Origin: Patescibacteria group bacterium UBA6263
GTDB lineage: Bacteria > Patescibacteriota > Gracilibacteria > Absconditabacterales > Absconditicoccaceae
NCBI GenBank assembly: GCA_002441085.1
Contig: DJVF01000011.1
Coordinates: 4,514 to 65,767 of the forward strand
Direction: 5' to 3'
Length of the DNA stretch: 61,254 bases
Under the pieces are notes generated by a model. It saw nothing but the letters and a program-made list of their open reading frames with translations, searched no databases and had not been told where the DNA came from. Both the position numbers and the translations under genes were made by a program. Each line of letters starts with the position of its first letter. The first letter of the stretch is position 1. Of the stretch, positions 21,849 to 60,685 are shown piece after piece.

Positions 21849-24800
21849 ATGACAATATCTCTTGAGCAGTGTCAAAATATGCTTGCTAATCAACTTGTGC
21901 AAGATTTTTCGCAACAACAAAATATATCTAAACTAACTACATCTGCTTGGTGAAAAAATAAAGCAGATTGTATTTCTGTAATGTGATGACTAGGTAAAAT
22001 ACAATCTTCGATTGCTCAAATACAACAGGATCATAAAAGTGGAACTTTGGTCCTAGAAGAAACTAATAATTCATATTTTGAAACTACAGAAACTGTATCT
22101 AAAAATAATATAGAAAGTGATATTTGATTGTTTGGGGTTTCTTTCAACCAGATTGGTAATTCTATTTTCATTTGAATATTATCTTTGATTTTTGTGTACT
22201 TGATATGGAATGTTGTAAGATATGGATTGAGATATATTTATTCGTTTGTGAATGAAAACAGATTTGTGTATTTAAAGGTTATTTTACCAAAATGAGATGA
22301 TAAATTGTGACGTGAACAATCCAAAGAACTAGCTAAAGATATGAAAGAAAAAATATGACGTATGTCACAAGTTTATATGCATTTCCATAAAGTGAAGGAA
22401 TTAAGTACACGAGACACTATGATGTATACTCTTTTTTCTAAACAAAAGATAATTATGATGTATCATTATGAATGATGAACTTTAAATTTTATAGTATGAA
22501 CATTCCCAGAATATATGAAAGTAGTAGAATGAGCTATATCTTCACAATTTTCAGATTGTTCAATAGAGAGTGTAAAAAAACCAAATTTTTTCTCCAAAAA
22601 ATATAGCGATATAACAGTGCTAGAGCCAAAAAAAGATCCAATATATACAATAAAGATGTTTAAGTTGATGCCAGATGATCCTATAAATAATATTATAGAT
22701 GCTATAGCTAAGGTACAAACTACCGATACAGTTACTATTTTGATGCCGATAAAACCTGTATGATCAAAGTTTAATGAGAAAATGAAAAAATTTGCTGATA
22801 GACTTTATAAAAATCTTGATATTAAAGATACTCCTTGGTGGCATTATATTTTTATGCCATGGAAAATATTTGGATTTCTCTTTTTTTGACCATCAAAAAA
22901 ACTTTTAGCTTGATCGTCTGGTGATGCTGATAATGTTACAATGGTACGTATGGTAAAATCAAAAGAAGATGCTATGAACGCTATATGAGAAGAAGCATGA
23001 TTGCCAGTTTTTAGATCGTGATTGATGTTGATTACATCATCTGATTCTAAATTAAACGTAGATTCTAATATAGATAATCTTGTCAGTGCCTATAATATTT
23101 ATTGAGATGAATATTCCAATCAACTTGATGAAGCACTTACCAAACATGATATGTTTTGATTTATTTTTAGGCCACTTTGGGCTATAGCTGCAAGATTTTA
23201 TTTGACATGATTTTTTTTCAAATATGCTTATTTTTCTGTAAATCAGTTAACATCCTTATTCCATTTCCCTGATTGACTATACAATCGTTCTACTATAATT
23301 GAATGGATGCAATATAAAGTATTGGCGGCTCCTTCTGATTTGCCAAATATGTCTTTAGATCTTGAAAATGGTTATGTGATGTGATGATTGTTGGCAGAAA
23401 AATATAAGGATTGAAAACTTTCAAAAATTTTGGAATCTGATTATAGAGATCATCGAGCTATTGGTAATTGAAATTCAAAAGAAGAAGTATTGAAGCCTAT
23501 AGAAGAATATAAATGAGAATCTATTGAGTGAAAAGAAATAATAGAAAAAAACTGAAAAAAGTTTGTTAAAACATATAAGGAGATATCTTATACTTGATAT
23601 AAACTTTATAAAAATTGAGTTTTGTTGTGAGTAAATATATATAGAAACTCTCTAACTCCAGTATATATGAAAAGAGATGATAGGACAAGGCATTATTATT
23701 GTATATGAAAATCGGGTACATGAAAATCTGTATTTTTACAAACTTTAGCTAGGCAAGATATTTGGAATGGTGATTGAATATGTTTGATTGATCCTCATGG
23801 AGATTTGGCCGAAGATGTATTGGCATATATACCAAAAGAAAGAGCTAAAGATGTCGTATATTTTGATGCTTGAGATGAAGATAGGCCTATGTGATTGAAC
23901 TTATATGAGATAAATAACCTTGATGAAGCAGACAGGGTAGTAAATGATGCTACAGAAATATTTATCAAAATGTTTGGTCCTGAAATATTTGGTCCTAGAA
24001 TACAAGAATATTTTAAATATGGAAGTCTGACTTTGTTGGAAGATTTTGATGATAGACCAACTCTTTTGGATGTTGTAAGATTGTTTACGGATGAATGATA
24101 TAGAGAATATAAAGTCAAAAAAGTGACAAATCCTGTAGTCAGAAATTGGCGAGAAAAAACATTTAATGCTATGTGAGATAGAGAAAAACAAGAAATTATA
24201 CCATATTTTTCTGCTAAATTTGTATCTTTTAATACCAATAGACTTATTAGAAATATTATATGACAGACAAAATCAGCATTTAAGTTTGATGATGTGATGG
24301 ATAATAGAAAGATATTGATTATAAATCTCAGTAAGGGTAAAATATGAGAAATGAATGCTCAATTGCTGGGTATGATTATTGTGTCCAAGATATATACTGC
24401 TGCTATGTGAAGAGCTAGAATGGATGAAAAGGATAGAAAAGATTTTTATTTGTACGTGGATGAATTCCAAAATTTTGTATCTTGAACTTTTGCAGATATC
24501 CTTTCTGAGGCTAGAAAGTATAGATTGTGTCTGATAATGGCTCATCAATATATTGCTCAATTGGATCCTCCTAAGTGACTTGGAGATTCTGGATGATGAA
24601 AAAATGATGTTAAAGCTGCTGTCTTTGGTAACGTCTGAACTATGCAATCATTTAAAGTCTGAGCGCCAGATGCTGAATTTCTTGAAAAAGAATATGCTCC
24701 TGTACTTTGATGACAGGATATTGTTGGTATAGCTAATTACAAAGCTTATATAAAACTAAATATAAACAATTCTACAACTCGTGTTTTTAGTATGAATATG

Positions 24801-24980
24801 ATATATTCAAAAGACTATCAAAATAAAAAGATAGTACCAATTCTAAAAGAATATTCTGCAAAAAGATATTGAAGAAAAAGAGAATTTGTCGATGCTGAAA
24901 TGCAGGCAAGACTCTGACTTGGGGTAGATGAAACTAATCTCCCAGCTAATGATAATTCGAAGGATGAATTACAGATATAA
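21849..24980 (+). CDS. VirD4/TraD-like (type IV secretion coupling-protein-type) P-loop ATPase, 1043 aa
   Basis: One TM in the N-terminal region. Walker A is HYYCIGKSGTGKS, followed by [12 protein letters not shown]. Walker B is [11 protein letters not shown], followed by [20 protein letters not shown]. Confidence 0.8.
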
Positions 24981-25683: not shown

Positions 25684-25714
25684 AAATCTTCTCTTTATTG
25701 AGGAGATTTTTTTT
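25684..25714. terminator. intrinsic terminator between convergent transcription units
   Basis: Stem AATCTTCTC / GAGGAGATT (one mismatch) followed by a T-run. Confidence 0.4.
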
Positions 25715-26639
25715 ATAATCAAAGGTATGTGTGTGATAAGAAATCTGGAATTGGCTGTTTGAGAAATGACTCTAATGATATAGTTTTGGTCCAGTATTTT
25801 CATATACCTTTTATATAAAATGTACTTGTTGGTAGATATTCGTTGATTCAAAGTGTTGGTTGTATATCTACACAAAAATTGATTGAGGTTTGAAATTCTT
25901 TGGTGTTTCATAATATAATGAAGCTTTTTAACAATGATGAATGTTTTTTATATTCATTAGATAGGTTGCTTAATCATATTGGTATATTGGATCAATAAAC
26001 TTCAAATGAATTTTTAAAATCGTTGATTATATTTGGATTGTTTGTAGATCAAGTTTTTATAAATATTCAATCTTGTAATATATCTGATCATGACATTATG
26101 ATTATTCATATTGTTATTTCTTTGTTTGGAGAAGGTGTTTTTAATTTTATGTTTGGTAATTTATCTGCCATATTTTTATAAGTTGGGCTGTTGATCAATT
26201 TATCATAGTTTGTGCCTAAATTTATTTGTCTAAATAAAGGTAATATAAATGATTGTCATGTATTTAATGATATAGGATTGTTGCATCAAGTATCAGTCCG
26301 TGTATTTAGAGAAAAAGAATTAGAATTTCAAGATATGCTTGTATAAAGATTACAATTTTTACATAAAAAATTTGATTGCACAATATCGTCTCATGTATTT
26401 ATAGTATTTTCAAATCAGACTCAGTTGTTTTGTATCTGGGTTAAAGATATTTCCAATCAGGCTTTGGATAAATAATATGATTTGTAATATCCATGTATTA
26501 TATTGTTGTATTCCATCAATTCTCTAATATAATTGGTGCTTAATATTCAAATCAATGAAGATGCTATCAATATAAAAAGAACCAAAATACTTATATTTCA
26601 TTTATTATTAATCTTTTTTGACTCATGATTGTTAGTCAT
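25713..26639 (-). CDS. PilX-like minor pilin / pilus-associated protein (308 aa)
   Basis: It has the hydrophobic N-terminus GNISILVLFILIASSLIGILS but no G|FTLIE motif. Its start overlaps the upstream pilin stop. It is the last gene of the pil operon. Confidence 0.5.
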
Positions 26640-27273
26640 TGTTATCTATTGAATTAAAAAATTGTTGTATAGGGATATTTATTCTATTGTATCGATGCTG
26701 ATTGTATGTGATAGAATAGGCTTTGGATATAATAAAAAATCATGGCTTGTGTATGCATCCTATATAGTTTGTACAGGTTGATATTCAATTAATATAATTT
26801 TGAGGGGAATCATATGGTACTATTTTGAATATAACTTGAGATAAATATGTAGTTTTGGGATTGCTTATATCGACTATTTGTCAATTATTATTTACCTGTA
26901 AATGACATTGATATCATCATGTTAAAAAATCTATACTTATTCATGGATCTAAGCAAGTTCATGTACTATATATTTCAATATTTCAATCTTGTCAGCTTAG
27001 ATATAGTATCTTGGTAAGTCATTTTTTGATTGATAGAAATCATGTTCATAGCTTGGTATGATATTTGTCATAATCTATGCTATTTCTGTCAGAAAAATTT
27101 TGTATTATTTGAGATATAAATAAGATTTCTTGTGTAACTTTTTTTTCTTGTTCTATCCTAAATGATATTTGAGAAATAAAAGTATATGTTTTCATCAAAA
27201 CAATAGATAAAATTCATATTATCACAAGTACTATAATTGTTTCGACTAGTGTAAATCATTTGGCTTTGTTCAT
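26632..27273 (-). CDS. type IV pilin-like protein (prepilin N-terminal methylation motif)
   Basis: MNKAKGFTLVETIIVLVIIGILS. The cleavage-site Gly is a TGA codon. Confidence 0.8.
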
Positions 27274-27277
27274 TTGG

Positions 27278-27880
27278 CTAATATTCTCCTATAAAACTTT
27301 CTAAAACAATTTCTCATGTCTTGGATCATTTGCTAAACATTACATGAGATTCTAATTTAATTATTTTATCAGTTGGTAATATTTGTCACAATTCTATTAT
27401 TCAAGTAAGTACTATATATCTCGAAAATATAGTTGTTTGTCAATCGGTATTGTTGTGATTGTACCAAAAAATTGTATTTCAATTTATATTTCATGAATGG
27501 TAGTATAGTCTATTATCTTGGAAATTATTGGAGTTTGTCCATTTAAATTTGGGATATTTGTCTGGTTCTAGTCATATTTGTAAATATTTTCATAAAGTCC
27601 CAGAAGCGAATGTTCAATCGCAAAATTGAGTGAGAGGAGTTATATTTTGAGGATCTGTAAATATACAGTTTCGATTTAGTTCTTTGGCAAGGTTAGCATC
27701 TCTAGCATTGAATACTAGTTCAATTCATTCTTTGGCTAAAAAGGTTGCTATATTTTTGGTTTTTGTATCATCTAATTTTTGTAAATTATTTGTAATTAAA
27801 TAAAAAACTGCCATTATTCATATTGAAAAAACAGCTATTATTATAATTATTTCTATTAAGGTGAATCACTTATTTTTCAT
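27278..27880 (-). CDS. type IV pilin-like protein
   Basis: MKNKGFTLIEIIIIIAVFSIGIMAV. The cleavage-site Gly is a TGA codon. Confidence 0.8.
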
Positions 27881-27988
27881 GATTTATATTATCTATAAAC
27901 TTTATTTTTCATTGCATGAAACAATAGTTCAAAGGTAATATAAGGTTTGTATTTTTATATTCAAGATTAAGTCATTTTGTTTTTGATT

Positions 27989-28540
27989 TTAATTTGAACA
28001 AATTTCCTGTATGATTTTACAATTTTGTGAAAGTATATACATACAATATTTTGTGTTTTGATTTATAGTGATTTGAAAATCTAATTTTGTTCATGTATTA
28101 TTGTTTTGGTCTTTTATAGTGCATCATAATTTGTATGGAGATATTTCTATTGTAGCCTTATTTTGATTTGAAGCTCAGTCGACCTTTATATTGTTGGTTT
28201 GAATAATATCTATTTCTTTTTTGCCAGTATAAATATAATTATCTCAAATATATGAATAAAAAATTGAATTATTTCATGAAAATATTTCTAAATTCAATGT
28301 ATTGAAACGATTTTGTTTTATATAGTTGGATTCTAATGAGCTGCTATAAAATCAATTAAATGCTGATGTAAATTCTTCTTTAGCTGTTTTGTATTTTAGT
28401 TTAAATATATTTTCTGATCCAAAATAAATTGTCATTCACAAAATTAAGCTTATTACAACCAATATTATAATTATTTCTATCAGAGTAAATCATGATTTGA
28501 TGTTATATTTGCCTATTTTTTTATGCTTTATTATACTCAT
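27989..28540 (-). CDS. type IV pilin-like protein
   Basis: MSIIKHKKIGKYNIKSGFTLIEIIIILVVISLIL. Its start overlaps the pilC stop by 10 nt. Confidence 0.8.
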
Positions 28541-29655
28541 ACTCATTCCATTATTTGTAATATAAGTCAAAACACTCCCAGAGCTATAATAACTATAACA
28601 ACTCATATAAAAACCAATATAACCGGTTCTATAACTTTTGCAAGACGATTGATATTGTTGTCTAATTCTTCTTCATACATTCTAAGAACATTGTCTAATG
28701 AACTTTGTAGATTAGCAGTCTCTTCTCATACTTTTATAAGAGCTGAAACATTACTTGGTATCAAATATGTTTGATCTTTAATAGTTTCGTATATTGTTTC
28801 TCATTTTTGAAGTCATATTAGAGTATTTTCTATCATATTTTGATATATTGGTATATTTAATATGTCTTTGAGTATTTGAAAAGTTTCTATATAATTCATT
28901 CATGATTCCAACATAATCCTGGTATATCTACATCGTTTTATTAAATAGTAATATTTTGTTAATTTACCAAATAATGGGATTTTTAATAAAGTTGAAAATC
29001 GCTTTTTTTTGCCAGTATCTGTAGATGAAAAAATTAATAAAATAGTTATAGTCGATACTATGATTCGCATTATTCATTTTCGATTTTCTTTTGTTCAATC
29101 TGCTATATTTTTTAATATAACGGTAACCCTTGGTAATTTAACATTTTCAAAGCTATTTGCTATTTCAAAAATTCATGGCAAAACAAATGCAAATAAAGAT
29201 ATCATAGCTACTATGGTTATTACTATTAGTATAGTAGGATAAGTCAAAGCCATCATATATTTATTTTTGATTTCATTCATATAAGTGTATTCATCTGCAA
29301 GGGACTTTAGTATTTGTACTATATTTCATGATCTTTCTCAAGCTTTGACTATACTATAATCTTTCTCATCAAAATAATCTGGTAGTCTATTGAAAGCATA
29401 TGATAGTTCCTTTCATTGTATCAGATAATGATTTACATTTTTGGATATTTCTTTTACAGAATAGTTATCAGAACTGCTTTCTATTATTTTCATAGCTTCA
29501 GATAATGCTACTCATCAATTTATTAAATATGATAATTGTCTAAAAAATATAACTTTTTCTTTGCTTCAAAAAGTTCATTTATCCATTTCACGTAAAAATG
29601 AAAGTATAGCTTTGTCTATCAGATTTGTATTGTATTTTTTATTTGATTTTTCCAT
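28531..29655 (-). CDS. pilC: type IV pilus platform protein PilC (GspF family)
   Basis: FFRQLSYLINGGVALSEAM, VKAGERSGNIVQILKSLADEY, LIKVGEETANLQSSLDNVLRMYEEE, VIEPVILVFIGVVIVIIALGVFGL. Confidence 0.9.
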
Positions 29656-29670
29656 TTTATATTACTGATT

Positions 29671-30432
29671 TTATTTATAATAAAATGCTTTTAAATATAT
29701 ATCTACATTCTGTTCTTTTTCATAAGACATAAGATCATAAGATATTTCATCAATCTTGTACAATATACGCAAATCTGTTTGTGGGTTTATTTTTCTTTCT
29801 ATATTGTGTATAAATGATAGTAGAGTATCTTTATTTTCAAAAGTTATATTCAAATATACATTTACGTAATATAGATTATTTTTGAACTCTGTAGGATCTC
29901 AGATTCCAATATTATTTATTTCTCAATTCTTTGCTGATCCTGTAAAATTTTCTTTTGTCAAATATTCATTTATATTTTTAAGAATCAACTTTTCATCTAC
30001 AGTCATTTTTTCACTAGTTAGACTGTTTGCTTGTAGATATGAAACAGCTTCTGAAAAATTTTTCTTGATTTCAGGATCTATTTGTTCACATCATTGCTGA
30101 TTATTTATGCACTCTAATATTGCGTTTTCTCAATTTTCTATCTTCAAAGAAAGATCTATATCTGCTTGTAATTTTTGCTGTTTATTTCAAAAATCTTTCA
30201 CTTCTGTTTTTATCGATTCTAGGTTTTGTTTGGAACTTTGAAAAACCTCTTGTTTGGGAAGTGCATAATTGAATATTCATATTAGTATCAATATGGTCAT
30301 TATTATTGAGTATATTCTATATCTTATAGACACTATCCTGATTTGTCCCATTTCAACTTTTTCTTCATCTTCTACTTGTAGATAAGATTTGGACTTTTTT
30401 AGAATGTTTTCTATTATATTATTATTTTTCAT
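29671..30432 (-). CDS. PilO-like pilus assembly protein
   Basis: One TM, then a coiled coil. The C-terminal part YYVNVYLNITFENKDTLLSFIHNIERK resembles the PilO fold signature. Its position is between the pilN-like gene and pilC. Confidence 0.55.
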
Positions 30433-30967
30433 TGGACTTTATTTTAGCATTTAAAACAAACTCAAAATATCTTTCTCACGTTTTATCATAAGTTTTTATT
30501 TCCATATTTTCTATAAAATCTAAATCTTCAAATCTATCTATAAGTGATTTAAAACTCCCAGATGGAGAATTGTAATATAGTAATCTTAAATTTGATACTT
30601 TTCATTTTAAACTAATTTCATTTAAATTTACTTTGAAATCTGATAAAATAATAGATTCACTTCATGAATTTATTGACTTTAGATCTTCTAATATTGATAT
30701 TATTTTGGGTATGTGTTCTGACCATGGCATAGATTGTGATGAATTTTCCAGTTCTCTTATGAGATATAATTTGTTATATCAAGTAGTCTGTTTATATTTT
30801 TCTAGTTCTATATTTTGTTGCTTTAGTATTTCTTGATTGTTTTTGATCCTTTGCTTGGTAATTTGATTTCATAGTTGGAAATATACATAAAAAAATACAG
30901 TTATAATAAATATAGCCGCAAGAAATTTGAATGTACTTTCTCGTCTAGATACAGATTGTGATTCCAT
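30422..30967 (-). CDS. PilN-like pilus assembly protein
   Basis: Short N-terminus, TM (FKFLAAIFIITVFFYVYF), then a coiled coil and ISLKGKVSNLRLLYY..FKSLIDRFEDLDFIENMEI. It overlaps the next gene by 11 nt. Confidence 0.55.
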
Positions 30968-31240
30968 GGATTATTATATAAAATAAAATTTATAATTTTT
31001 GTAGATAGTTATTACACTCAAATTATATACCTTGTTGTGAAATTTGCAAAAGCTTAGTTTAGTTTATTAAATTTTAATTTACATTATCTATATTATGTGA
31101 TATAATATGCTATTGATGAGATTAAATTTGTTTGAGTATTGTGATAATGACTAAAATTCTAAAAAATTGTTTTGTTTATTCTTGAAAGTGATTAATCTTT
31201 TTTTATAAGTGAACGATGTTTTTATTATTTTTTTGAAAAT

Positions 31241-34200
31241 ATGAACCAGAAAGATTTGATAAATAGTATGCTCGAATATCGAAAAAAATATGATATCTTT
31301 AAAAAATCTGTTGATCAAAGATCAGATAAATTACAATCAACAACATATGATTGACCTCCTTTTGCGTCTTGAACTCCACATTTTGGACATGGATTGACTT
31401 CGTCAATGAAAGACACTATTTTTAGATACAAAAGTATGAAGTGATATAGGGTCAATAGAGATTGGTGATGGGATTGTCATGGATTGCCTGTAGAAAAATA
31501 TGTAGAGAAAAAATTGTGAATTGATGGTAAAAGAGATATAGAGGAAAAAATAGGAGTAGAAAAATTTATTGAAGAATGTAGGGCTTCTGTAGGTAATATT
31601 AGTTGAGAATGGAGAACTTTTGTTGATCAGATATGAAGACGAGCCGACATGGATAATGCATATTTTACAATGGATCTGGATTTTATGGAATCGGTAATAC
31701 GAGTTTTTCAGAATATGTATAATCAAAATCTGGTTTATAAATGATTTAAAGTGCAACGATGTTGTCCTAGTTGTGCAACTGCGCTTTCCAATTCTGAAGT
31801 AAATGATTGATACAAAGATAAACAAGATCAGGCTATAACTATAAAATTTAAAATAAATGGTGGCATTAAAAATCGAGAAGGTTCGGAAACGACTTCTGAT
31901 TTATGTGTCCATGTTGTTACATGTGCCATCAAACAAGATAATAAATTTCTTCAATTTTATCACTCAAAGAGCCTAAGATATGAATTTCCTGGTGGGAAAA
32001 TAGAAAAATGATTTACTATCATGGATACCGTAAAAAAAGAAATTAAAGAAGAACTTGGTGTTGAGGTAAACGAAATTATTGAACTTTGAAGTTTCAAAGA
32101 AATCATAAAATGACATCTTTTGAATTTACATTACGTAGATGTGATTATAGAAGGCGAACCGAAAAATATGGAACCAGAAAAACATCCACAAATGATTTGG
32201 GCTGAAGTTATTAAATCTGAAAATAATCTGTGATTTGCAGTGAAGATTGAAAATACTATCATTGATGATGGTTTTGAAATTATGAATCAGTTTCCTGATC
32301 TGTATTACTATCATAAAAATTTTGCTAAAGAAATTACTAAATTGCAACAAAAAGAACCAGCTAATATTAATATTCTTGCATGGACTACTACTCCACGAAC
32401 TTTACCTAGTAATATGTTTTTGGCTGTAGGTAGCGATATTCGTTATTACATGGTTTTTGATAAAAGTAGTAAAGAATATTATGTAATAGCTGAAAGTCTA
32501 ATTAAACAATATTATAAGGATAGTAATGAATATATTCTGATTAATGTTTTGAAATGATCTGATTTGGAATGAATAAAATATGAACCGCTTTTCCCATACA
32601 TAAATCAAAGTAATATTGATCAAAAATATAAAGATCAGTTTTTTCAGATTATTAGCTGAGAATTTGTAAGTACAGAAGATGGTACTTGAATAGTACATAT
32701 TGCGCCAGGATTTGGAATGGAGGATTTTGATGCAGTTACAAAAATTTTACCTAGGGAAGATTCTAAAAATTGGCTTTTTATGCCTGTAAATGACTTTGGA
32801 GAATTTACAGATCAAGTAAATGATTATCAGGGGAAATCTGTTTTTGATGTAAATAAAGAGGTAATTACAAGACTTAAAGAAGAAAAAAAACTTATATGAC
32901 AGAGATCTTATTCCCATTCTTATCCTCATTGTTGGAGATGTGAAACTCCATTGATATCCAAAGCAATTACTTCTTGGTTTATCAAAGAACAAGAACTTAC
33001 AAAAATAACAGTTCCAAATGCTGAAAATATTTGATTTGTACCTGAAACTGTAAAAAATAGATTTCGCGATACTCTCAATTCTGCTCCAGATTGGAATATT
33101 TCTAGAAATAGATATCGATGATCTCCGTTACCTGTCCGAGAAAATGTCAATAATGAAGATGATAAAATGATTGTATGAACATTGGATGAAATATGGAAAA
33201 ATTCTATAAATTGATCTAAAAACCTTACAAAGCTCGTTTTTGTAAGGCATTGAAAATCTGAATATAACGTTCCAGTGCCACATTTAGTCGATAATTATGG
33301 CAAAGCTCATCTTGTAGATGAATGAAAAGAGCAAGCAAAAAAACTTGTTGAAAATTTAAGATTTTTGTCTGAAGATATAGATAATGTTGTATTTGTTATA
33401 TCACCATTGCCTAGAGCTTTTGAAACAATATTGCCATACCTTGAAAAAATATTGTGAAAATCTGAGATGAAAATTGTAGTTAAAGAATATGAAAAGGTTT
33501 TGCAAAATTATCAAAAACTTTATGATGAATGAAAACTATATAATTATATAATTGAATCTTGAGATAAAAATAGATTTGAGATATGAAAAAATATATATAT
33601 TGATTTTAGAGCAATCGAAATGTTTATACCTGAATATCAGGACAAGGAACATGATTGTAAAATTTTGAAACGAGAGGATGTAAAGCAATGAAAATGATGA
33701 GAATCTATGTTTGATATGTACAAAAGATGTGATTGATATTTACTTGATATTACATCAAAATTTAAAACCAAAACTGTTGTTACTGTCTCTCATGCAGAAG
33801 CAACGCTGATGATGTTTAAAAAAATTAGAGATTTTGATTACAATAAAAAGAAAAAAAACTTTATGCTGCGCAATGGAGAGATTAAAATTTATTATCGAGA
33901 TAATGATCATAATAAAGAAGTAGATTTACATAAACCTTATGTAGATAGTTATCGATTTAATATAGATTGAAATGAATATCGTAGGATACCTGAAGTAATG
34001 GATTGTTGGTTTGAATCTTGATCTATGCCATTTGGACAAGCATGATATATTTGAGTCGAAAGCAAAAAGTCCTTAGTTTATCCTGCAGAATTTATTATTG
34101 AGTGATTGGATCAGACTAGAGGGTGGTTTAGAGCAATGCATGTTGTAGGTAATGCAATTATGAAAAAAAATTCTTTTGATAATGTTATTATCAATGGTAT

Positions 34201-35365
34201 GATACTTGCTGAAGATGGTCGTAAAATGTCTAAAAGTTTAAATAATTATCCTGATCCCAAGTACGTTTTTGAAAGATATTGATCTGATGCTTATAGGTTG
34301 TACTTATTATCTTCTCCTGCTGTTAGAGCTGAGCCAATGAGATTTGCAGAGAAGTGAGTAGATCAGATTTATAAGGATTTTACAAGTGCTATTATCAATT
34401 CTTATAATTTTTTTGAGACTTATGCTAATGTAGATAATTTCAAATCTGATTGAACTAATGTTTATTTTGTAGGACATACTGAATCAGATTGAAAAGATGT
34501 TGACTCAGAAACTTCATCAAAATGAATAGAATCTATGAAAGATAAAAAATTGATTGAAGATGTAATTAGAACTAATCCTGATATTATTTATGTTTCTCCC
34601 ACTAAAAGAACAATCCAAACTGCTGAAAAATTTGCAGAAATATTAAAAGAATATACATGAAAAATTGTAGAAATAAAGATTGAAGAATCTTTGGCTTCAG
34701 AGGGAGATAGTATAGAATTTTATAATGATGTCTTGAATATAGATAAATCAAAAACAATTTTGATAGTATCTCATCTTTCAAGCTTCAAAAAATTATGGGC
34801 TAATATTTTTGATGATTCAAAAGATGCTAATATCAATCATCTTGAATTTATCAAATTGCCAAGCTACAAGATTGAAAATGAATTAGACAAGTGGATATTA
34901 GCTGAATTGAATAAGGTCTGAATAGAAATGGAATGATTTATGGATGTTTATGTTCTTGATGGTGCAGCTAAATCTGTTCTTGGATTTGTAGATAAAATGA
35001 ATAATCGATATATAAGGAGATCTAGAAGAAGGTTTTGGTCTTCGGGTATGAATTTGGATAAAATATCTGCTTATAATACATTACTAGAAGTAATGGAAAC
35101 TTATATGAAAATATGTTCTTGTTTTGCGCCATTTATATCAGAATATATATATCTTAAGTTGCAAAATTTTAAAAATATTGATTTTGTAGATTGAGAATCT
35201 GTCCATTTAAAAACATTACCTATTTTTAATAAATTATATGTAGATAAAAGTCTTTTAGATGAGATAGCTACAGTTAGGAGAATAATATCTTTAGGGCTGT
35301 TTATAAGATCTAAAAATGGTATAAAAGTTAAACAGCCTTTGGGTGTAATGCATATAAAATTTTAA
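31241..35365 (+). CDS. ileS: isoleucyl-tRNA synthetase (type 2-like), 1374 aa, with three inserted domains and no C-terminal domain
   Basis: The HIGH motif is PHFGHGL and the KMSKS motif is RKMSKSL. Other IleRS motifs are GWDCHGLP, AWTTTP(CGA)[21 protein letters not shown](CGA)GSPLP and DQTRGWF. The gene ends 10 codons after IKVKQPL. Confidence 0.9.
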
Positions 35366-50666: not shown

Positions 50667-53630
50667 TTATTTTTGGCTTCGAACAACTTTTTCTTCTCAA
50701 TTGATTTCTTTAAATTCTTTGGCTTTTACTTTGATTTTATCTCATATATTGTAATATTTTTTCCATTCGACTCAAGCTGGAGCAACGATGAAATTTTTGT
50801 GTAGCAATCATTCAACTCATTTGACAGTTACAAACATTCAGTAATTATAACTTAATTTGATGTATCCGTCGTATTCTTGTCAAATTTTGATGTTTTTGAT
50901 GGTAAATGTTTCATTGCCTGCCTGTCCGTTAGATAGGTTTCATTGTTTTAATGTTTTAGTGTTAGAGGGCTTAGGGGCTAAGGGGTTTGTTGTTCAGGTA
51001 GTTCCTGTATTTGTAGTCTTGCTTGCTTCTGTAGATGTTGGTTTAACTTCTTCTTTTGGCATAGCAGCTTGTATTTTACTTATATTTGGACAAAATTTTA
51101 GAAGCTCATTTTGAGCTGGATCAAGTCATGCATTTTTGATAATTTCTTCCAATTGTTTGGAGCAGTCTGTTTTGTTTCATATCCAAATCACCAATGGTCA
51201 ATTTTTCTCTATTTTAATTGTTTGATGCTCGTATATATCCAAATGAGTTTGTATAGATCAGATTTTTTGTCATTTTTTATATTTTATATTCGCTTGATCA
51301 TCTAATCATTTTGGTTTTGTATACCATATTGCTTTGTGGGAATTGTTGTCTGTATCAAATATAATTGCGTCTGGCTCTACTCAATCTATATTAAATTCTC
51401 TGAAGAGATAATCATGATCCAATACAAATTGATCTTCTAGATTTTTGACTTCTTTATCATTTAGTCATAGTCATTCAAGTTTAGCCTTTTCTGCTATTTT
51501 TTCTTGGATAGAAAATGTCTTTGCATTCCAAGCGTTCATCAATCTTTCTAATTGATCTTTTGGGGTTGCGTATCTTTGCCTTGATTGCTTACGTATCTTA
51601 TCGATAAGCTCCAATGATCAATCAGGTGTAGATATAGGTAGTGTTTTCATATTGAATGGGTCTGATGATATTCAGTCTACCATTAGCCTAGTGTAAGCTG
51701 TGAATTTTGGCAGTGATATAAGATCGTTTATGGATACCATTTCTTTGAATTGTGCAGAAATATCTACAGCATCATCACGTCATAGAGTAAAAGATATTAT
51801 ACTACCTACGTTTCCAAAGATAGCATCTTTGATTTCTGGTATCAACTGTGATGTATATTGATTTGCTACTATTAGTGATAATTTATATTTTCTAGCTTCT
51901 GACAATATAGTGACAAATGATTCTGTAGCAAAATTTTGAAACTCATCTATATAAAGATAAAAATCTCTTCTTAAATGTGCTGGTATATCTGCTCTAGACA
52001 TTGCATCTATTTGAAACTTTGTGACTAGTAATGATCAAATCATATTCGCATTATCTTCTCATATTCTTCATTTACTGAGATTGACAAGAATAATTTTTCA
52101 TTCATCCATAGCTTTTCTTAGGCTTAATTTGGTCCTAGGTTGACCGAATATATTTCTCACCAATTTGGACGATAAAAATTGTCAGACTTTGTTGGTAATA
52201 GGTCATACTGCTTCTTCTCTTTGTTTGTCATTTCGTTTGTTAAATTCTGTTTGTCGAAATTTTAATACAACTCAATCTTTGATATTGCTGATGACTTCTT
52301 CCCTAAAATTTTTATCTGTTAATATTCTTAATATATGCATAAGTGTTGCATTGGGATATTCTACAAGAGACAATACAACATTTCTAAGTATATATTCTAA
52401 TCTTGGTCATCGAGAATTACCGAAGAGTCTTTTGAAGGTTGATACTACTCCAGAAGCTACTAGATTTTTTCATTCTTCTGTATCTGACTGAAATAGATTA
52501 AATCATAATGGAAAGTCTGAATCTGCGACATCAAAAAGTATTACATCATTTATTCTATTTGTGGGTATGTGCTCTAGTATAATATCTACAAGCTCTCCGT
52601 GTGGATCTAATAATGCTAATCAGTTTCATGTCATCATGTCACTTTTGAGCATATTGGCTATAAATGTTGATTTACCAGTTCATGTTTTACCTACTATATA
52701 CATATGTCTAAATTTGTCATCTTTTTTGATTCCAAATCTGATTTTTTCTCCCCTATAATCAGTATCTCAAAGTACAGTCAAATCTTTTTCATTTGTATTG
52801 TCTAGTATCGGAATGTTCGTAGGGTATGGTAACTTTCTGTATAAGGTATATTCAAGTCATTTTATAAAATTTTCTTTTGTAGGAAGATGAAAAAAATTGA
52901 TAGCTTGATCAAAAGCTAATCGTTTGTATTTTTGAGTTTTTTTTATTTTTATTTTTCAATCTGAAACAAATGGAGAAAATACTGATATTATATTTTTTTC
53001 TGTGCTTTCTTTGATATAAATATCTTTTGTCCTAAGTATATAAGATATCGATGTCAAAATATCTTCTTTGGGTAAATTATCATCTTTTTTTTCTTCTGCT
53101 TTTTTGGTTGCTCACCATGCTCGTTTGATAAATGATCATATCTGTTGTAATGTATTTTTGCTTTTTTTGAATTTAAAGTCAAAATAAATGTTCAATTTGG
53201 AATCTTTGTCTATATTGTTGTATAAAGACAATATGTCTTTGATAGGATCCATATATTTTCAATCTTTGGTGAATGTAGATTGTGAATTTAAAACTCAATC
53301 TTCAGAAAAACGTATAAAATTTCTATTATTAGGCAATACAAATGCTTGTTCTTCTTGCAAATCAGAAGTAGGATAATTGGAATAGAATGTGTTTTGAAAA
53401 TAATTTTTGAATGATTTGGGAATTACTACAAAAAATTTGATACTGTGAGAATTTCAGCTCATTAAAAATGTTATGGTATTTGATTTTAAACTGATTAGAT
53501 TGCTAATGACAGCATTCCAGTGATTTATGCCAAATTCATTATCTTTGAATGGCTTAATCTGTAGAAATACTTTGTCTGATTTTAATTCTTTTTTTGTGGT
53601 AGTTGAATGAATTTTTGTTTGTTTTGTCAT
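50667..53630 (-). CDS. VirD4/TraD-like P-loop ATPase with a C-terminal S1 domain, 987 aa
   Basis: Walker A is HMYIVGKTGTGKS, followed by LLDPHGELVDI. Walker B is FYLYIDEFQNF, followed by SEARKYKLSLIVANQYTSQL. After a T/P/N linker comes the S1-like QEYDGYIKLSYNYGMFVTVKGVEGLLHKNF..YNIGDKIKVKAKEF. Confidence 0.8.
50908..50945. repeat. copy of the GC-rich element inside a CDS, flanked by the 9-nt direct repeat GTTTCATTG
   Basis: The reverse complement of 50917-50940 is AAACCTATCTAACGGACAGGCAGG, with the same AAACCT..AGGCAGG frame as 1412-1434 and 46160-46182. The direct repeats are at 50908-50916 and 50937-50945. Confidence 0.5.
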
Positions 53631-60061: not shown

Positions 60062-60685
60062 TTATTTTTTGAGAGCAAAATTGATTGTAGACTCTTCGTT
60101 TGTAAAAAGAGCAAAAATATTTCAATCTGGTTTTTTGTTTTCTTTGGTAATGGTGTTTAATAATGCTTCTCATTTTAGAAAATCTACAAACTCTTGTATA
60201 ATTTCGCTCAAAGTATTGTCATCTGTTTGATAGATCATATCTACTTTGGAGTCTACACTATAATCAGCGTCTTTTCTCATTTGATTTATAAATCTAGATA
60301 TTTCACGAGCTATTCATTCTTTTTGTAATTGAGGAGATATTTCCAAGTCTAATTTGGCTATAATATTTCAATCTACGGCTATATCATTTCAGTCTATTCA
60401 TTGATAAGCTATTTCATAATCTTCTTTTGATAATATTCGTTCATTTTTTTGATCGTCAAAAACCTTTATTTTTGAATCTTGTAGTTCTACAATATTTCAT
60501 TGTTTGGAAAATTGTATGATTTTGCCTGTGTCTTTGGTAAATTTTGATGAGATTTGAGATCATATAGGTTTGTATATTTTGCTAATGTTTAGAGAATCTG
60601 GAAGTATATCTATTTTTTTGACATTTACCTCTTCTTGTATGATATCTCAATATTTATTTAATAGATTTTGTAACTCTTGAGTCAT
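60062..60685 (-). CDS. stand-alone IleRS C-terminal domain protein (207 aa)
   Basis: YGDIIQEEVNVKKIDIL, KPIGSQISSKFTKDTGKI and LDLEISPQLQKEGIAREISRFINQMRKDADYSVDSKVDMIY. These match the segment that follows ..VRQPL.. in type 2 IleRS. Confidence 0.7.

Follow-up and report, generated by a model that had tools for sequence, protein, structure and literature searches.

The subject of this analysis is the isoleucyl-tRNA synthetase (IleRS) gene, ileS, in a 61,254-nucleotide stretch of DNA (the window) from the SR1/Absconditabacteria member UBA6263 (contig DJVF01000011.1, positions 4,514 to 65,767). The encoded synthetase is interrupted at three positions by phosphohydrolase folds: a Nudix domain (insert 1, at site 1) and two histidine-phosphatase domains (insert 2, HP-A, at site 2; insert 3, HP-B, at site 3). 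The comparisons described below show that the composite enzyme is genuine and vertically inherited, with the inserts residing as autonomous modules in surface loops. That the modules are active and functionally linked to the synthetase is, in our estimate, an even bet.

In a Pfam analysis of the whole protein, tRNA-synt_1 (E 1e-117), Anticodon_1 (E 1.4e-23), His_Phos_1 and NUDIX were detected. The nearest solved structures were 9wqs, 7d5c and 8wnd with 619-620 bits, followed by the IleRS2 of P. megaterium (8c8v, 559 bits) and 1ile (518 bits). The S. aureus IleRS 1ffy, with 247 bits, scored far under the type 2 and eukaryotic structures. Because the top solved relatives are eukaryote-type and type 2 enzymes, the host was assigned to IleRS2; judged from its sequence, the chain corresponds to the body of a type 2 (eukaryote-like) IleRS and does not extend past the first anticodon-recognition domain (ARD1). 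The alignment with the solved eukaryote-type IleRS 9wqs_A consisted of four blocks separated by three clean interruptions (Table 1).

The conservation counts given here and below refer to 112 sequences, i.e. the window protein aligned with 111 full-length orthologues. The HIGH signature of the host has the form HFGH (aa 47-50, 31379..31390) and KMSKS is located at aa 995-999 (34223..34237); H47, H50, K995, M996 and K998 were invariant in 112/112. The editing motif WTTTPWTLP was present, and TTTP, H486 and D495 were likewise invariant in 112/112. By these motifs, the host is predicted to be a complete and editing-competent IleRS.

Table 1. Positions of the ileS gene, its domains and inserts, and the separately encoded DUF5915 protein in the window.
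Feature	Coordinates	Strand	Remarks
ileS coding sequence	31241..35365	+	1374 aa from the first ATG (31241) to TAA, with TGA=Gly and CGA=Trp
Catalytic (HUP/Rossmann) domain, N-terminal half	31241..31864	+	block aa 10-208, aligned with 9wqs_A 17-214
Insert 1, predicted Nudix domain	31865..32368	+	aa 209-376; junction of the catalytic and CP1 editing domains
Nudix box	31991..32062	+	aa 251-274; G-x5-F-x7-K-E-I-x-E-E-x-G-V
CP1 editing domain and next catalytic-core segment	32369..33226	+	block aa 377-665, aligned with 9wqs_A 218-500
Insert 2, HP-A, predicted full-size branch 1 histidine phosphatase	33227..33919	+	aa 663-893; with an extra helical stretch
Catalytic domain, second half, with DCWFESGS and KMSKS	33920..34432	+	block aa 894-1059, aligned with 9wqs_A 498-666
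Insert 3, HP-B, predicted minimal SixA-sized histidine-phosphatase fold	34433..34876	+	aa ~1065-1212; linker before the anticodon-binding domain
Anticodon-binding domain (Anticodon_1; ARD1)	34877..35362	+	Pfam aa 1216-1369; aligned block aa 1198-1370
Stand-alone DUF5915 protein	60062..60685	-	207 aa; PF19302, 83.3 bits, E 2e-23, profile positions 2-176 of 195

Insert 1 stands in place of 3 residues of the reference IleRS. Scanned alone, it matched NUDIX (PF00293) with 31.8 bits (cut-off 21.1, E 1.7e-7). When the profile of the orthologous inserts was compared with the PDB, the best match was MutT 4v14 (E 4e-12), BdRppH and NudG matched also, and the match to the Ap4A (diadenosine tetraphosphate) hydrolase 3i7u was much weaker (E 1.9e-5). 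AlphaFold2 models were obtained for orthologue modules, the Nudix of P0004 and the HP-B of P0016, which are 47-48% identical to those of the window. The model of the P0004 insert 1 segment (47% identical) had a predicted local distance difference test score (pLDDT) of 91.7 and a predicted TM-score (pTM) of 0.86, and Foldseek paired it with BdRppH, MutT and NUDT15, each with a probability of 1.0. By its modelled fold, insert 1 is a MutT/RppH-like Nudix pyrophosphohydrolase.

Compared with the canonical GX5EX7REUXEEXGU, the Nudix box of the window has two departures, Phe for the first Glu and Lys for the Arg. The metal-binding E267, E270 and E271 are kept in the window and were invariant in 112/112. 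Position 266 was Arg in 77 and Lys in 35 sequences, that is, one or the other in 112/112, and the residues at position 258 included Glu (74), Asp (27) and Phe (2), with E or D in 101/112. The consensus of the SR1 clade is a textbook Nudix box, and the window's copy is among the less canonical ones. The conservation of these residues suggests that the Nudix module is an active enzyme. No substrate-defined subfamily was found for insert 1, as the best NCBIfam equivalog scores were 31-61 bits against cut-offs of 98-245; the closest families of the Nudix modules, all below cut-off, were MutT, NudG and YtkD. A strongly conserved non-catalytic motif, SDNxLGFAxKIxxTIIDD, was observed in the C-terminal extension of the insert (~32200..32290, aa ~322-350) and was present also in the non-SR1 protein P0128. 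A contact surface for the editing domain and a part in substrate binding are both conceivable for this motif.

HP-A, which spans aa ~663-893 in the 9wqs_A alignment, replaces none of the reference residues. Its motifs are RHG (33245..33253), SPLPR, FRAIE, GES and SH (H851, 33791..33793). The segment alone matched His_Phos_1 (PF00300) with 62.6 bits (cut-off 21.7, E 5e-17), and its profile matched in the PDB the metal-independent phosphoserine phosphatase (iPSP) 4ij5 over both halves (E 1e-15), followed by PhoE, CobC and dPGM. The catalytic residues R669, H670, R725, D/E793 and H851 were invariant in 112/112, with E793 in the window. Taken together, the motifs and profile matches assign HP-A to the PhoE/iPSP/CobC-like histidine-phosphatase fold, and the fixed catalytic set suggests an active enzyme.

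At site 3, residues ~1060-1197 of the query stand opposite ~8 residues of 9wqs_A. HP-B, scanned alone, matched His_Phos_1 with 28.6 bits (cut-off 21.7, E 1.3e-6). It is homologous to HP-A (hhalign 96.5%, E 9e-10), and ~80 central residues corresponding to the cap region are absent from it. The model of the P0016 HP-B segment had a pLDDT of 85.4 and was paired by Foldseek with alr0221 and SixA (probability 1.0). The closest NCBIfam families of the site 2 and site 3 phosphatases were CobC, PspA and the RNase H/acid-phosphatase fusion, and that of HP-B was SixA, all below the cut-offs. The HP-B of the window has GHT (34472..34480) in the place of RHG, together with SPTKR and SH; in its core, G1078-H1079-R1123-H1178, the first Arg of the R-H-R-H set is gone. 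The complete R-H-R-H set was found in 94/112 sequences overall. Among the 13 sequences that share 62% identity or more with the window, taken as its subclade, only 4 have the set, and in P0004 all four catalytic residues are lost. The domain is still full length where the catalytic residues are gone (P0004, P0008-P0010). This pattern suggests that HP-B is losing catalysis in the window's subclade, where it probably survives as a structural element.

These results are in agreement with an earlier reading of the DNA made from its letters alone (the sequence-only reading), according to which ileS retains the catalytic and editing motifs, and its otherwise continuous IleRS chain is broken by one Nudix fold and a pair of histidine-phosphatase folds. 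The invariance of the HIGH, KMSKS and CP1 residues and the three breaks in the 9wqs_A alignment correspond to that description, and both phosphatase inserts were above the Pfam cut-off when scanned alone and had profile matches to solved structures. The coordinates and motif strings of the Nudix box, RHG and GHT were exact, including the Phe and Lys substitutions beside the kept REUxEE glutamates in insert 1 and the change of RHG to GHT in insert 3. Two of the checks that it had proposed, a domain search and a structure prediction for the inserts, gave a significant hit for each insert alone and ordered models for the orthologue Nudix and HP-B.

The same architecture is general in SR1. At least 120 clusters with lengths of 1190-1420 aa and identities down to 48% were retrieved by an indexed protein search, all of them with PF00300 and most with PF00293, and every named one was from Absconditabacteria/SR1. 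The clusters originated from NCBI, JGI, ENA and Logan assemblies, and more than 110 of the SR1/Absconditabacteria orthologues were independent, full-length and of the same architecture. The mean top-residue frequency was 0.57-0.61 in the inserts versus 0.71-0.79 in the core; although the inserts otherwise vary more than the core, the catalytic residues of the Nudix domain and HP-A are fixed. The order of the genes around ileS (pilins, T2SSF, ileS, dnaG, DUF3127, tRNA methyltransferase, EF-P, TruB) was the same in the window and in a 717-kb contig of another genome.

Reading of the gene depends on its codon assignments. With only TAA and TAG as stops, the sole long frame of the region was 31196..35365 on the forward strand; under the standard bacterial code, the same region resulted in dozens of short open reading frames (ORFs). 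The coding sequence contains 46 in-frame TGA and 12 in-frame CGA codons. TGA=Gly coincides with conserved glycines, for example the G of a GTG motif and the G of RHG in HP-A, and CGA=Trp is found at the conserved tryptophans W14, W386 (in WTTTPWTLP) and W923 (in DCWFESG), with codons including those at 31280, 32396 and 34007. These three positions are Trp in more distant orthologues and Arg in mistranslated database copies. The location of CGA at universally conserved Trp positions is independent support for CGA=Trp in the window's subclade, in addition to TGA=Gly. The deposited copy of the protein, P0001, is identical except that it begins only with Met10 and has Trp for each of the 46 TGA codons (code 4) and Arg for each of the 12 CGA codons, which amounts to 58 wrong and 9 missing residues. 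Many SR1 orthologues in the databases were observed to be likewise mistranslated (W ~5%, G ~2%), and the NCBI name of such SR1 proteins is only 'class I tRNA ligase family protein'. Given the vague names and wrong translations, ileS may be treated incorrectly when these lineages are surveyed for marker genes or metabolism.

The mistranslation of P0001 means that annotation errors are real in this lineage, and it is the point in favour of regarding the inserts as an artefact or a selfish element, namely a chimeric assembly, a wrong translation of recoded codons, or inteins or mobile insertions excised during maturation of the product. This explanation is nevertheless extremely improbable. The frame is open across all the junctions with only TGA and CGA recoded, the architecture recurs in the independent assemblies mentioned above, and the synteny is conserved. 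The inserts contain 18 TGA=Gly and 3 CGA=Trp codons at a density like that of the core, with TGA falling on conserved glycines within them, the G of RHG included, and their GC content is like that of the core. No Hint/intein or homing-endonuclease domain was detected in a Pfam scan of the ileS product, no repeats were found at the insert boundaries, and the junction sequences lack intein-type residues (C/S/T ... HN-C/S/T). An intein, mobile-element or chimera origin was rejected on the lack of a Hint domain and boundary repeats and on the core-like codons and GC content. The sequence-only reading had assumed both codon reassignments, which were borne out by the conserved Gly and Trp positions, and had called for a survey of orthologous ileS; the recurrence of the architecture in that survey, together with the synteny and the shared recoded codon usage, also removed its concern about an assembly chimera.

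The occurrence of the modules outside SR1 was determined in an exhaustive search of 1.84 billion cluster representatives with the first 1200 residues of P0004 as the query. IleRS of 1140-1470 aa were returned, with aligned stretches running from the core into HP-A. Profile hidden Markov models of the modules were then scanned against 152 sequences (148 newly returned representatives, three SR1 orthologues and the query), and 67 of the 152 carried modules. The distances between conserved IleRS anchors were bimodal at all three sites, and the modules are therefore discrete and located at fixed positions. At site 1, there were 10 carriers (120-200 aa) and, among the non-carriers, 113 with a gap below 40 aa and one with 40-80 aa. 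At site 2, 54 carriers with at least 190 aa were found beside 93 non-carriers with 40-80 aa, and 15 sequences were genuine carriers at site 3.

Most carriers from the candidate phyla radiation (CPR) have the phosphatase without the Nudix module. With curated Pfam models, the non-SR1 modules scored 112-276 bits for His_Phos_1 and 52-80 bits for NUDIX, with P0128 being marginal at 22 bits. In the non-SR1 site 2 modules, clustered at 50% identity (n=48), the catalytic residues were kept in 44-47/48. A full-size canonical phosphatase at site 3 only was found in P0130, P0185, P0220 and P0239, and P0134 has a phosphatase at both site 2 and site 3. According to depositor names, the carriers belong to Peregrinibacteria, Magasanikbacteria, the Parcubacteria group, Dojkabacteria and 'Patescibacteria group'; Borrelia and a second lineage of Peregrinibacteria are among the close relatives that have no insert. 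Site 2 corresponds to the loop before DxWFESG, which bears CxxC in other CPR IleRS. In most non-SR1 carriers, a CxxC motif and IGSxxEL, the zinc-knuckle loop of many type 2 IleRS, were observed before the site 2 phosphatase; these cysteines are lost in SR1 IleRS, as seen when aa 633-662 of the window protein were compared with the non-SR1 carriers. Unusually long site 2 segments of 415-673 aa were observed in P0123 (1740 aa), P0131 (1468 aa), P0219 (1859 aa) and the L006 ORF (1491 aa, Peribacteraceae). At least two histidine-phosphatase-like matches were obtained at site 2 of P0123, P0131 and L006, where the module appears to be tandemly duplicated.

In a GTDB scan with a junction profile composed of the IleRS core and the N-terminal half of the phosphatase, at least 31 species-representative genomes matched across the core-phosphatase junction. 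Most of these carriers are labelled Patescibacteria: Peribacteria, Paceibacteria, Yanofsky-, Wolfe-, Nomura- and Spechtbacteria, Minisyncoccia and 'Saccharibacteria'. Among the GTDB matches listed, the remaining genomes hit only ~35-60 residues of the core, except L036, in which the phosphatase half only was matched. An IleRS with a site 2 phosphatase was observed also in L007 and L017, labelled Gammaproteobacteria, and in L020, labelled Spirochaetia. These three IleRS are 45-48% identical to representatives of the carrier clade; we suspect wrong labels or binning, the other explanation being that the trait occurs outside CPR. In a neighbour-joining tree of the core columns only, all the carriers fell in one (CPR) half, where they were clustered but patchy, and the presence of the site 2 module required 22 gains or losses versus 43 on average in shuffles.

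A Rosetta-stone test was conducted with insert-free CPR ileS loci, in the neighbourhood of which free-standing Nudix and His_Phos genes were sought. A free-standing His_Phos gene was found near 1/4 of the loci. This gene, L004:3574-4134 (a Logan SRR19053153 contig), encodes 186 aa, is flanked by argS and ileS, shares their strand and may be a Rosetta-stone neighbour. Its product is 33-37% identical over the full length to the embedded site 2 modules (~100 bits), and its score with the solved iPSP 4ij5 was 87 bits.

The SR1 enzyme is distinguished also by its C-terminus. The chain of the window's ileS stops after Anticodon_1, with no DUF5915 in the ORF and no remnant of it downstream. A DUF5915 gene is located ~25 kb from ileS on the opposite strand (Table 1), and its product is recognizable by sequence as the C-terminal domain pair (ARD2-ARD3) of a type 2 IleRS, separately encoded. 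The one-chain ARD1-ARD2-ARD3 arrangement of type 2 enzymes was not found in the window; the parts are present and divided between two genes. DUF5915 is fused in the non-SR1 IleRS, insert-free and insert-bearing alike, and it was fused in 0/120 of the SR1 IleRS examined, from a set of at least 120. In at least 120 SR1 clusters, including the contigs of P0001 and P0004, DUF5915 is a stand-alone protein of ~200-250 aa (~206 aa).

In IleRS2, the C-terminal ARD3 reads the anticodon base G34, and mutants without anticodon recognition fail to complement (10.64898/2026.02.03.703510); for this reason the detached DUF5915 protein probably works in trans. The SR1 IleRS looks like a two-gene, split enzyme, and no report of a split IleRS was found in the literature search. 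Naturally split aminoacyl-tRNA synthetases (aaRSs) are represented by the alpha/beta LeuRS of Aquifex aeolicus and the split AlaRS of Nanoarchaeum equitans. The SR1 enzyme is similar to these in that one synthetase is formed from two genes, here the IleRS body and the DUF5915 protein, and differs in the split point, which is after ARD1 and detaches ARD2-ARD3. The split C-terminal domain offers a natural experiment on anticodon reading by IleRS2, a question under active study.

The closest precedent for a Nudix and histidine-phosphatase pair is the mycobacterial MutT1, which has the same two folds in one polypeptide, a Nudix N-terminal domain followed by an RHG histidine-phosphatase C-terminal domain (PMC11784022). 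MutT1 converts 8-oxo-(d)GTP to 8-oxo-(d)GDP, acts on diadenosine polyphosphates and dephosphorylates the phosphohistidine of NDK; in the NDK assay, its histidine-phosphatase domain supports and does not perform the catalysis (PMC11784022). The MutT1 family NF052459 was weakly matched by the Nudix modules on its N-terminal half and by a CPR histidine-phosphatase module on its C-terminal half. However, the scores were 20-30 bits against a cut-off of 475, and the modules are not MutT1 orthologues. In addition, MutT1 is a free-standing tandem protein, whereas the domains described here are ~290 IleRS residues apart and nested in a synthetase. With regard to HP-B, E. coli SixA is in one report described as dephosphorylating Ndk (PMC12934123). 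HP-B has the size and fold of SixA, matched TIGR00249 over the whole length with 29.7-41.4 bits, and had 2rfl among its top fold matches; in contrast to SixA, it is under the family cut-off of 74.5, is nested in IleRS and has, in the window, Gly instead of the Arg of RHG.

Two fusion proteins provide further comparisons. NadM-Nudix, a bifunctional NMN adenylyltransferase/Nudix hydrolase, combines a nucleotidyltransferase domain of the HIGH superfamily with a Nudix domain for the breakdown of a related nucleotide (PMC7824862). The HIGH superfamily is shared with the catalytic domains of class I aaRSs, and a CPR Nudix module gave weak matches to NF003785-NF003788; however, NadM-Nudix is a terminal fusion with a host from NAD metabolism, and the module scores were far below the cut-offs. 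The bifunctional RNase H/acid phosphatase NF005567, which we take to be the Rv2228c type, joins a CobC/PhoE-like histidine phosphatase to a nucleic-acid enzyme. The non-SR1 embedded phosphatase modules reached 82-95 bits on its phosphatase half, under the cut-off of 326, and the arrangement differs in being a tandem fusion with RNase H. To our knowledge, the link between the RNase H and acid-phosphatase activities of such proteins is not understood.

Domain-in-domain growth as such is the established pattern in class Ia aaRSs, for instance CP1, the INS in the ARD2 of IleRS2/IleRS-A and the ZBD of IleRS1. With its HUP, CP and editing domains and ARD1, the host is an ordinary representative of these enzymes. 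The known nested domains serve aminoacylation, editing or tRNA binding, and none of them is a Nudix or histidine-phosphatase domain. The architecture given in a 2026 survey of IleRS comprises only HUP, CP, the editing domain, ARD1-3, INS and ZBD, and the words Nudix, phosphatase, Patescibacteria and DUF5915 are absent from that survey (10.64898/2026.02.03.703510). In the open-access literature and bioRxiv, no aaRS with a Nudix or histidine-phosphatase insertion was found to be described, nor was anything found on Patescibacteria IleRS, which accords with the remark in the sequence-only reading that no such aaRS was known. What is new here is the recognition and description of the enzyme; the sequences were already public with precomputed Pfam hits.

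As a working model, a MutT1-like pair of hydrolases may be tethered to the synthetase. The Nudix module would cleave a nucleotide phosphoanhydride, either in a damaged or surplus nucleoside triphosphate or in a dinucleoside polyphosphate such as the Ap4A made by synthetases, and the histidine phosphatase would strip the phosphate of a phosphomonoester or phosphohistidine either off the resulting product or off a partner protein. In this way, tRNA-Ile charging and the chemistry of the nucleotide pool would be physically tied to each other. The model is proposed because the catalytic residues of the Nudix domain and HP-A are fixed, because one host protein repeatedly carries these folds at fixed sites, and because the phosphatase fold is found at two different sites in different lineages. 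The role of such synthetase-coupled hydrolases could be the turnover of Ap4A and adenylylated by-products, the sanitising of the ATP pool, or the control of a phosphohistidine partner, e.g. Ndk; the Ap4A role is speculation. A broader proposal, which we advance only tentatively, is that CPR bacteria wired nucleotide-pool or phosphohistidine chemistry into tRNA-Ile charging with an ancient nested histidine phosphatase, to which a Nudix domain and a second phosphatase were later added in SR1 and a few other lineages, the SR1 enzyme being in addition a two-gene split IleRS with ARD2-ARD3 acting in trans.

Several observations weigh against a functional link between active modules and IleRS. Carriage is patchy, with 22 changes at site 2, and many CPR IleRS are without the modules, which indicates that they are dispensable for IleRS function as such. 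Catalytic residues of HP-B are lost in several SR1 lineages including the window's, and the window's Nudix box, as read from its sequence, is without the first Glu and has Lys for Arg. With the NCBIfam equivalog models, no module was above any cut-off, and therefore no substrate can be named. The Rosetta-stone result was weak, being restricted to 1/4 loci and to a gene of a generic subfamily that is no closer to the modules than to iPSP.

Part of the same evidence fits a different explanation, in which the inserts are active housekeeping enzymes unrelated to charging: a MutT-like nucleotide sanitiser and broad-specificity phosphatases would occupy tolerant loops of a gene that is essential and constitutively expressed in a strongly streamlined genome, with IleRS as a mere scaffold and expression vehicle. 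The modules do resemble generic MutT/NudG and PhoE/iPSP/CobC enzymes and bear no IleRS-specific signature, their patchy presence among close CPR relatives implies that IleRS works without them, and the insert-free CPR genome L004 encodes a homologue from their subfamily as a separate protein. Moreover, no other Nudix or His_Phos gene was found in the 61-kb window, a small part of the genome, which fits the inserts being the cell's working copies. However, random lodging should sample other folds and hosts, whereas two folds recur at three fixed sites over deep divergence, in a survey that covered IleRS only. The phosphatase at two different sites in different lineages is also difficult to reconcile with it, and internal insertion, much harder than terminal fusion, is the sole route seen here. 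We consider this explanation possible and somewhat doubtful. Less probable still, and in our view unlikely, is that the modules are mainly regulatory or structural, sensing ligands or providing surfaces for the binding of tRNA or a partner at hinges (the editing-domain hinge, the loop near the KMSKS half and the anticodon-domain linker), with residues kept for binding of phospho-ligands and charging tuned to the nucleotide or alarmone state. All three sites are indeed inter-domain junctions or loops, and HP-B being full length and predicted to be well folded without its catalytic residues (P0004, P0008-P0010) makes a non-catalytic role possible there. The conserved non-catalytic extension of the Nudix domain and the supporting function of the histidine-phosphatase domain of MutT1 in the NDK assay (PMC11784022) point in the same direction. 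Yet the full catalytic sets of the Nudix domain and HP-A are invariant (112/112, and ~46/48 outside SR1), down to the residues for metal binding and general acid/base catalysis, which exceeds the usual needs of ligand binding, and no alarmone-sensing role of these folds in aaRSs was found in the open-access literature and bioRxiv.

The aaRSs are among the best-studied enzymes, with accessory domains to which roles in tRNA binding or editing or, in eukaryotes, in signalling are ascribed. Here, two unrelated classes of phosphohydrolases are nested in an essential bacterial synthetase, with catalytic residues under strong purifying selection, throughout a whole candidate division and, in the case of the phosphatase, across many CPR lineages. 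Should coupling of the modules to charging exist, translation and nucleotide metabolism would be linked in a novel manner in minimal-genome organisms of obscure physiology; if it does not, the enzyme would be a striking case of essential genes hosting other enzymes.

Regarding the neighbouring genes, a type IV pilus/type II secretion cluster (N_methyl pilins, T2SSF), together with ORFs without Pfam matches, is located directly upstream of ileS at 25713..30967 on the reverse strand and is syntenic with the genome of P0004. Two large HerA/TraG/VirD4-like ATPases of ~1000 aa each were detected at 21849..24980 (forward strand) and 50667..53630 (reverse strand), the latter with a C-terminal S1 RNA-binding domain, an unusual combination.

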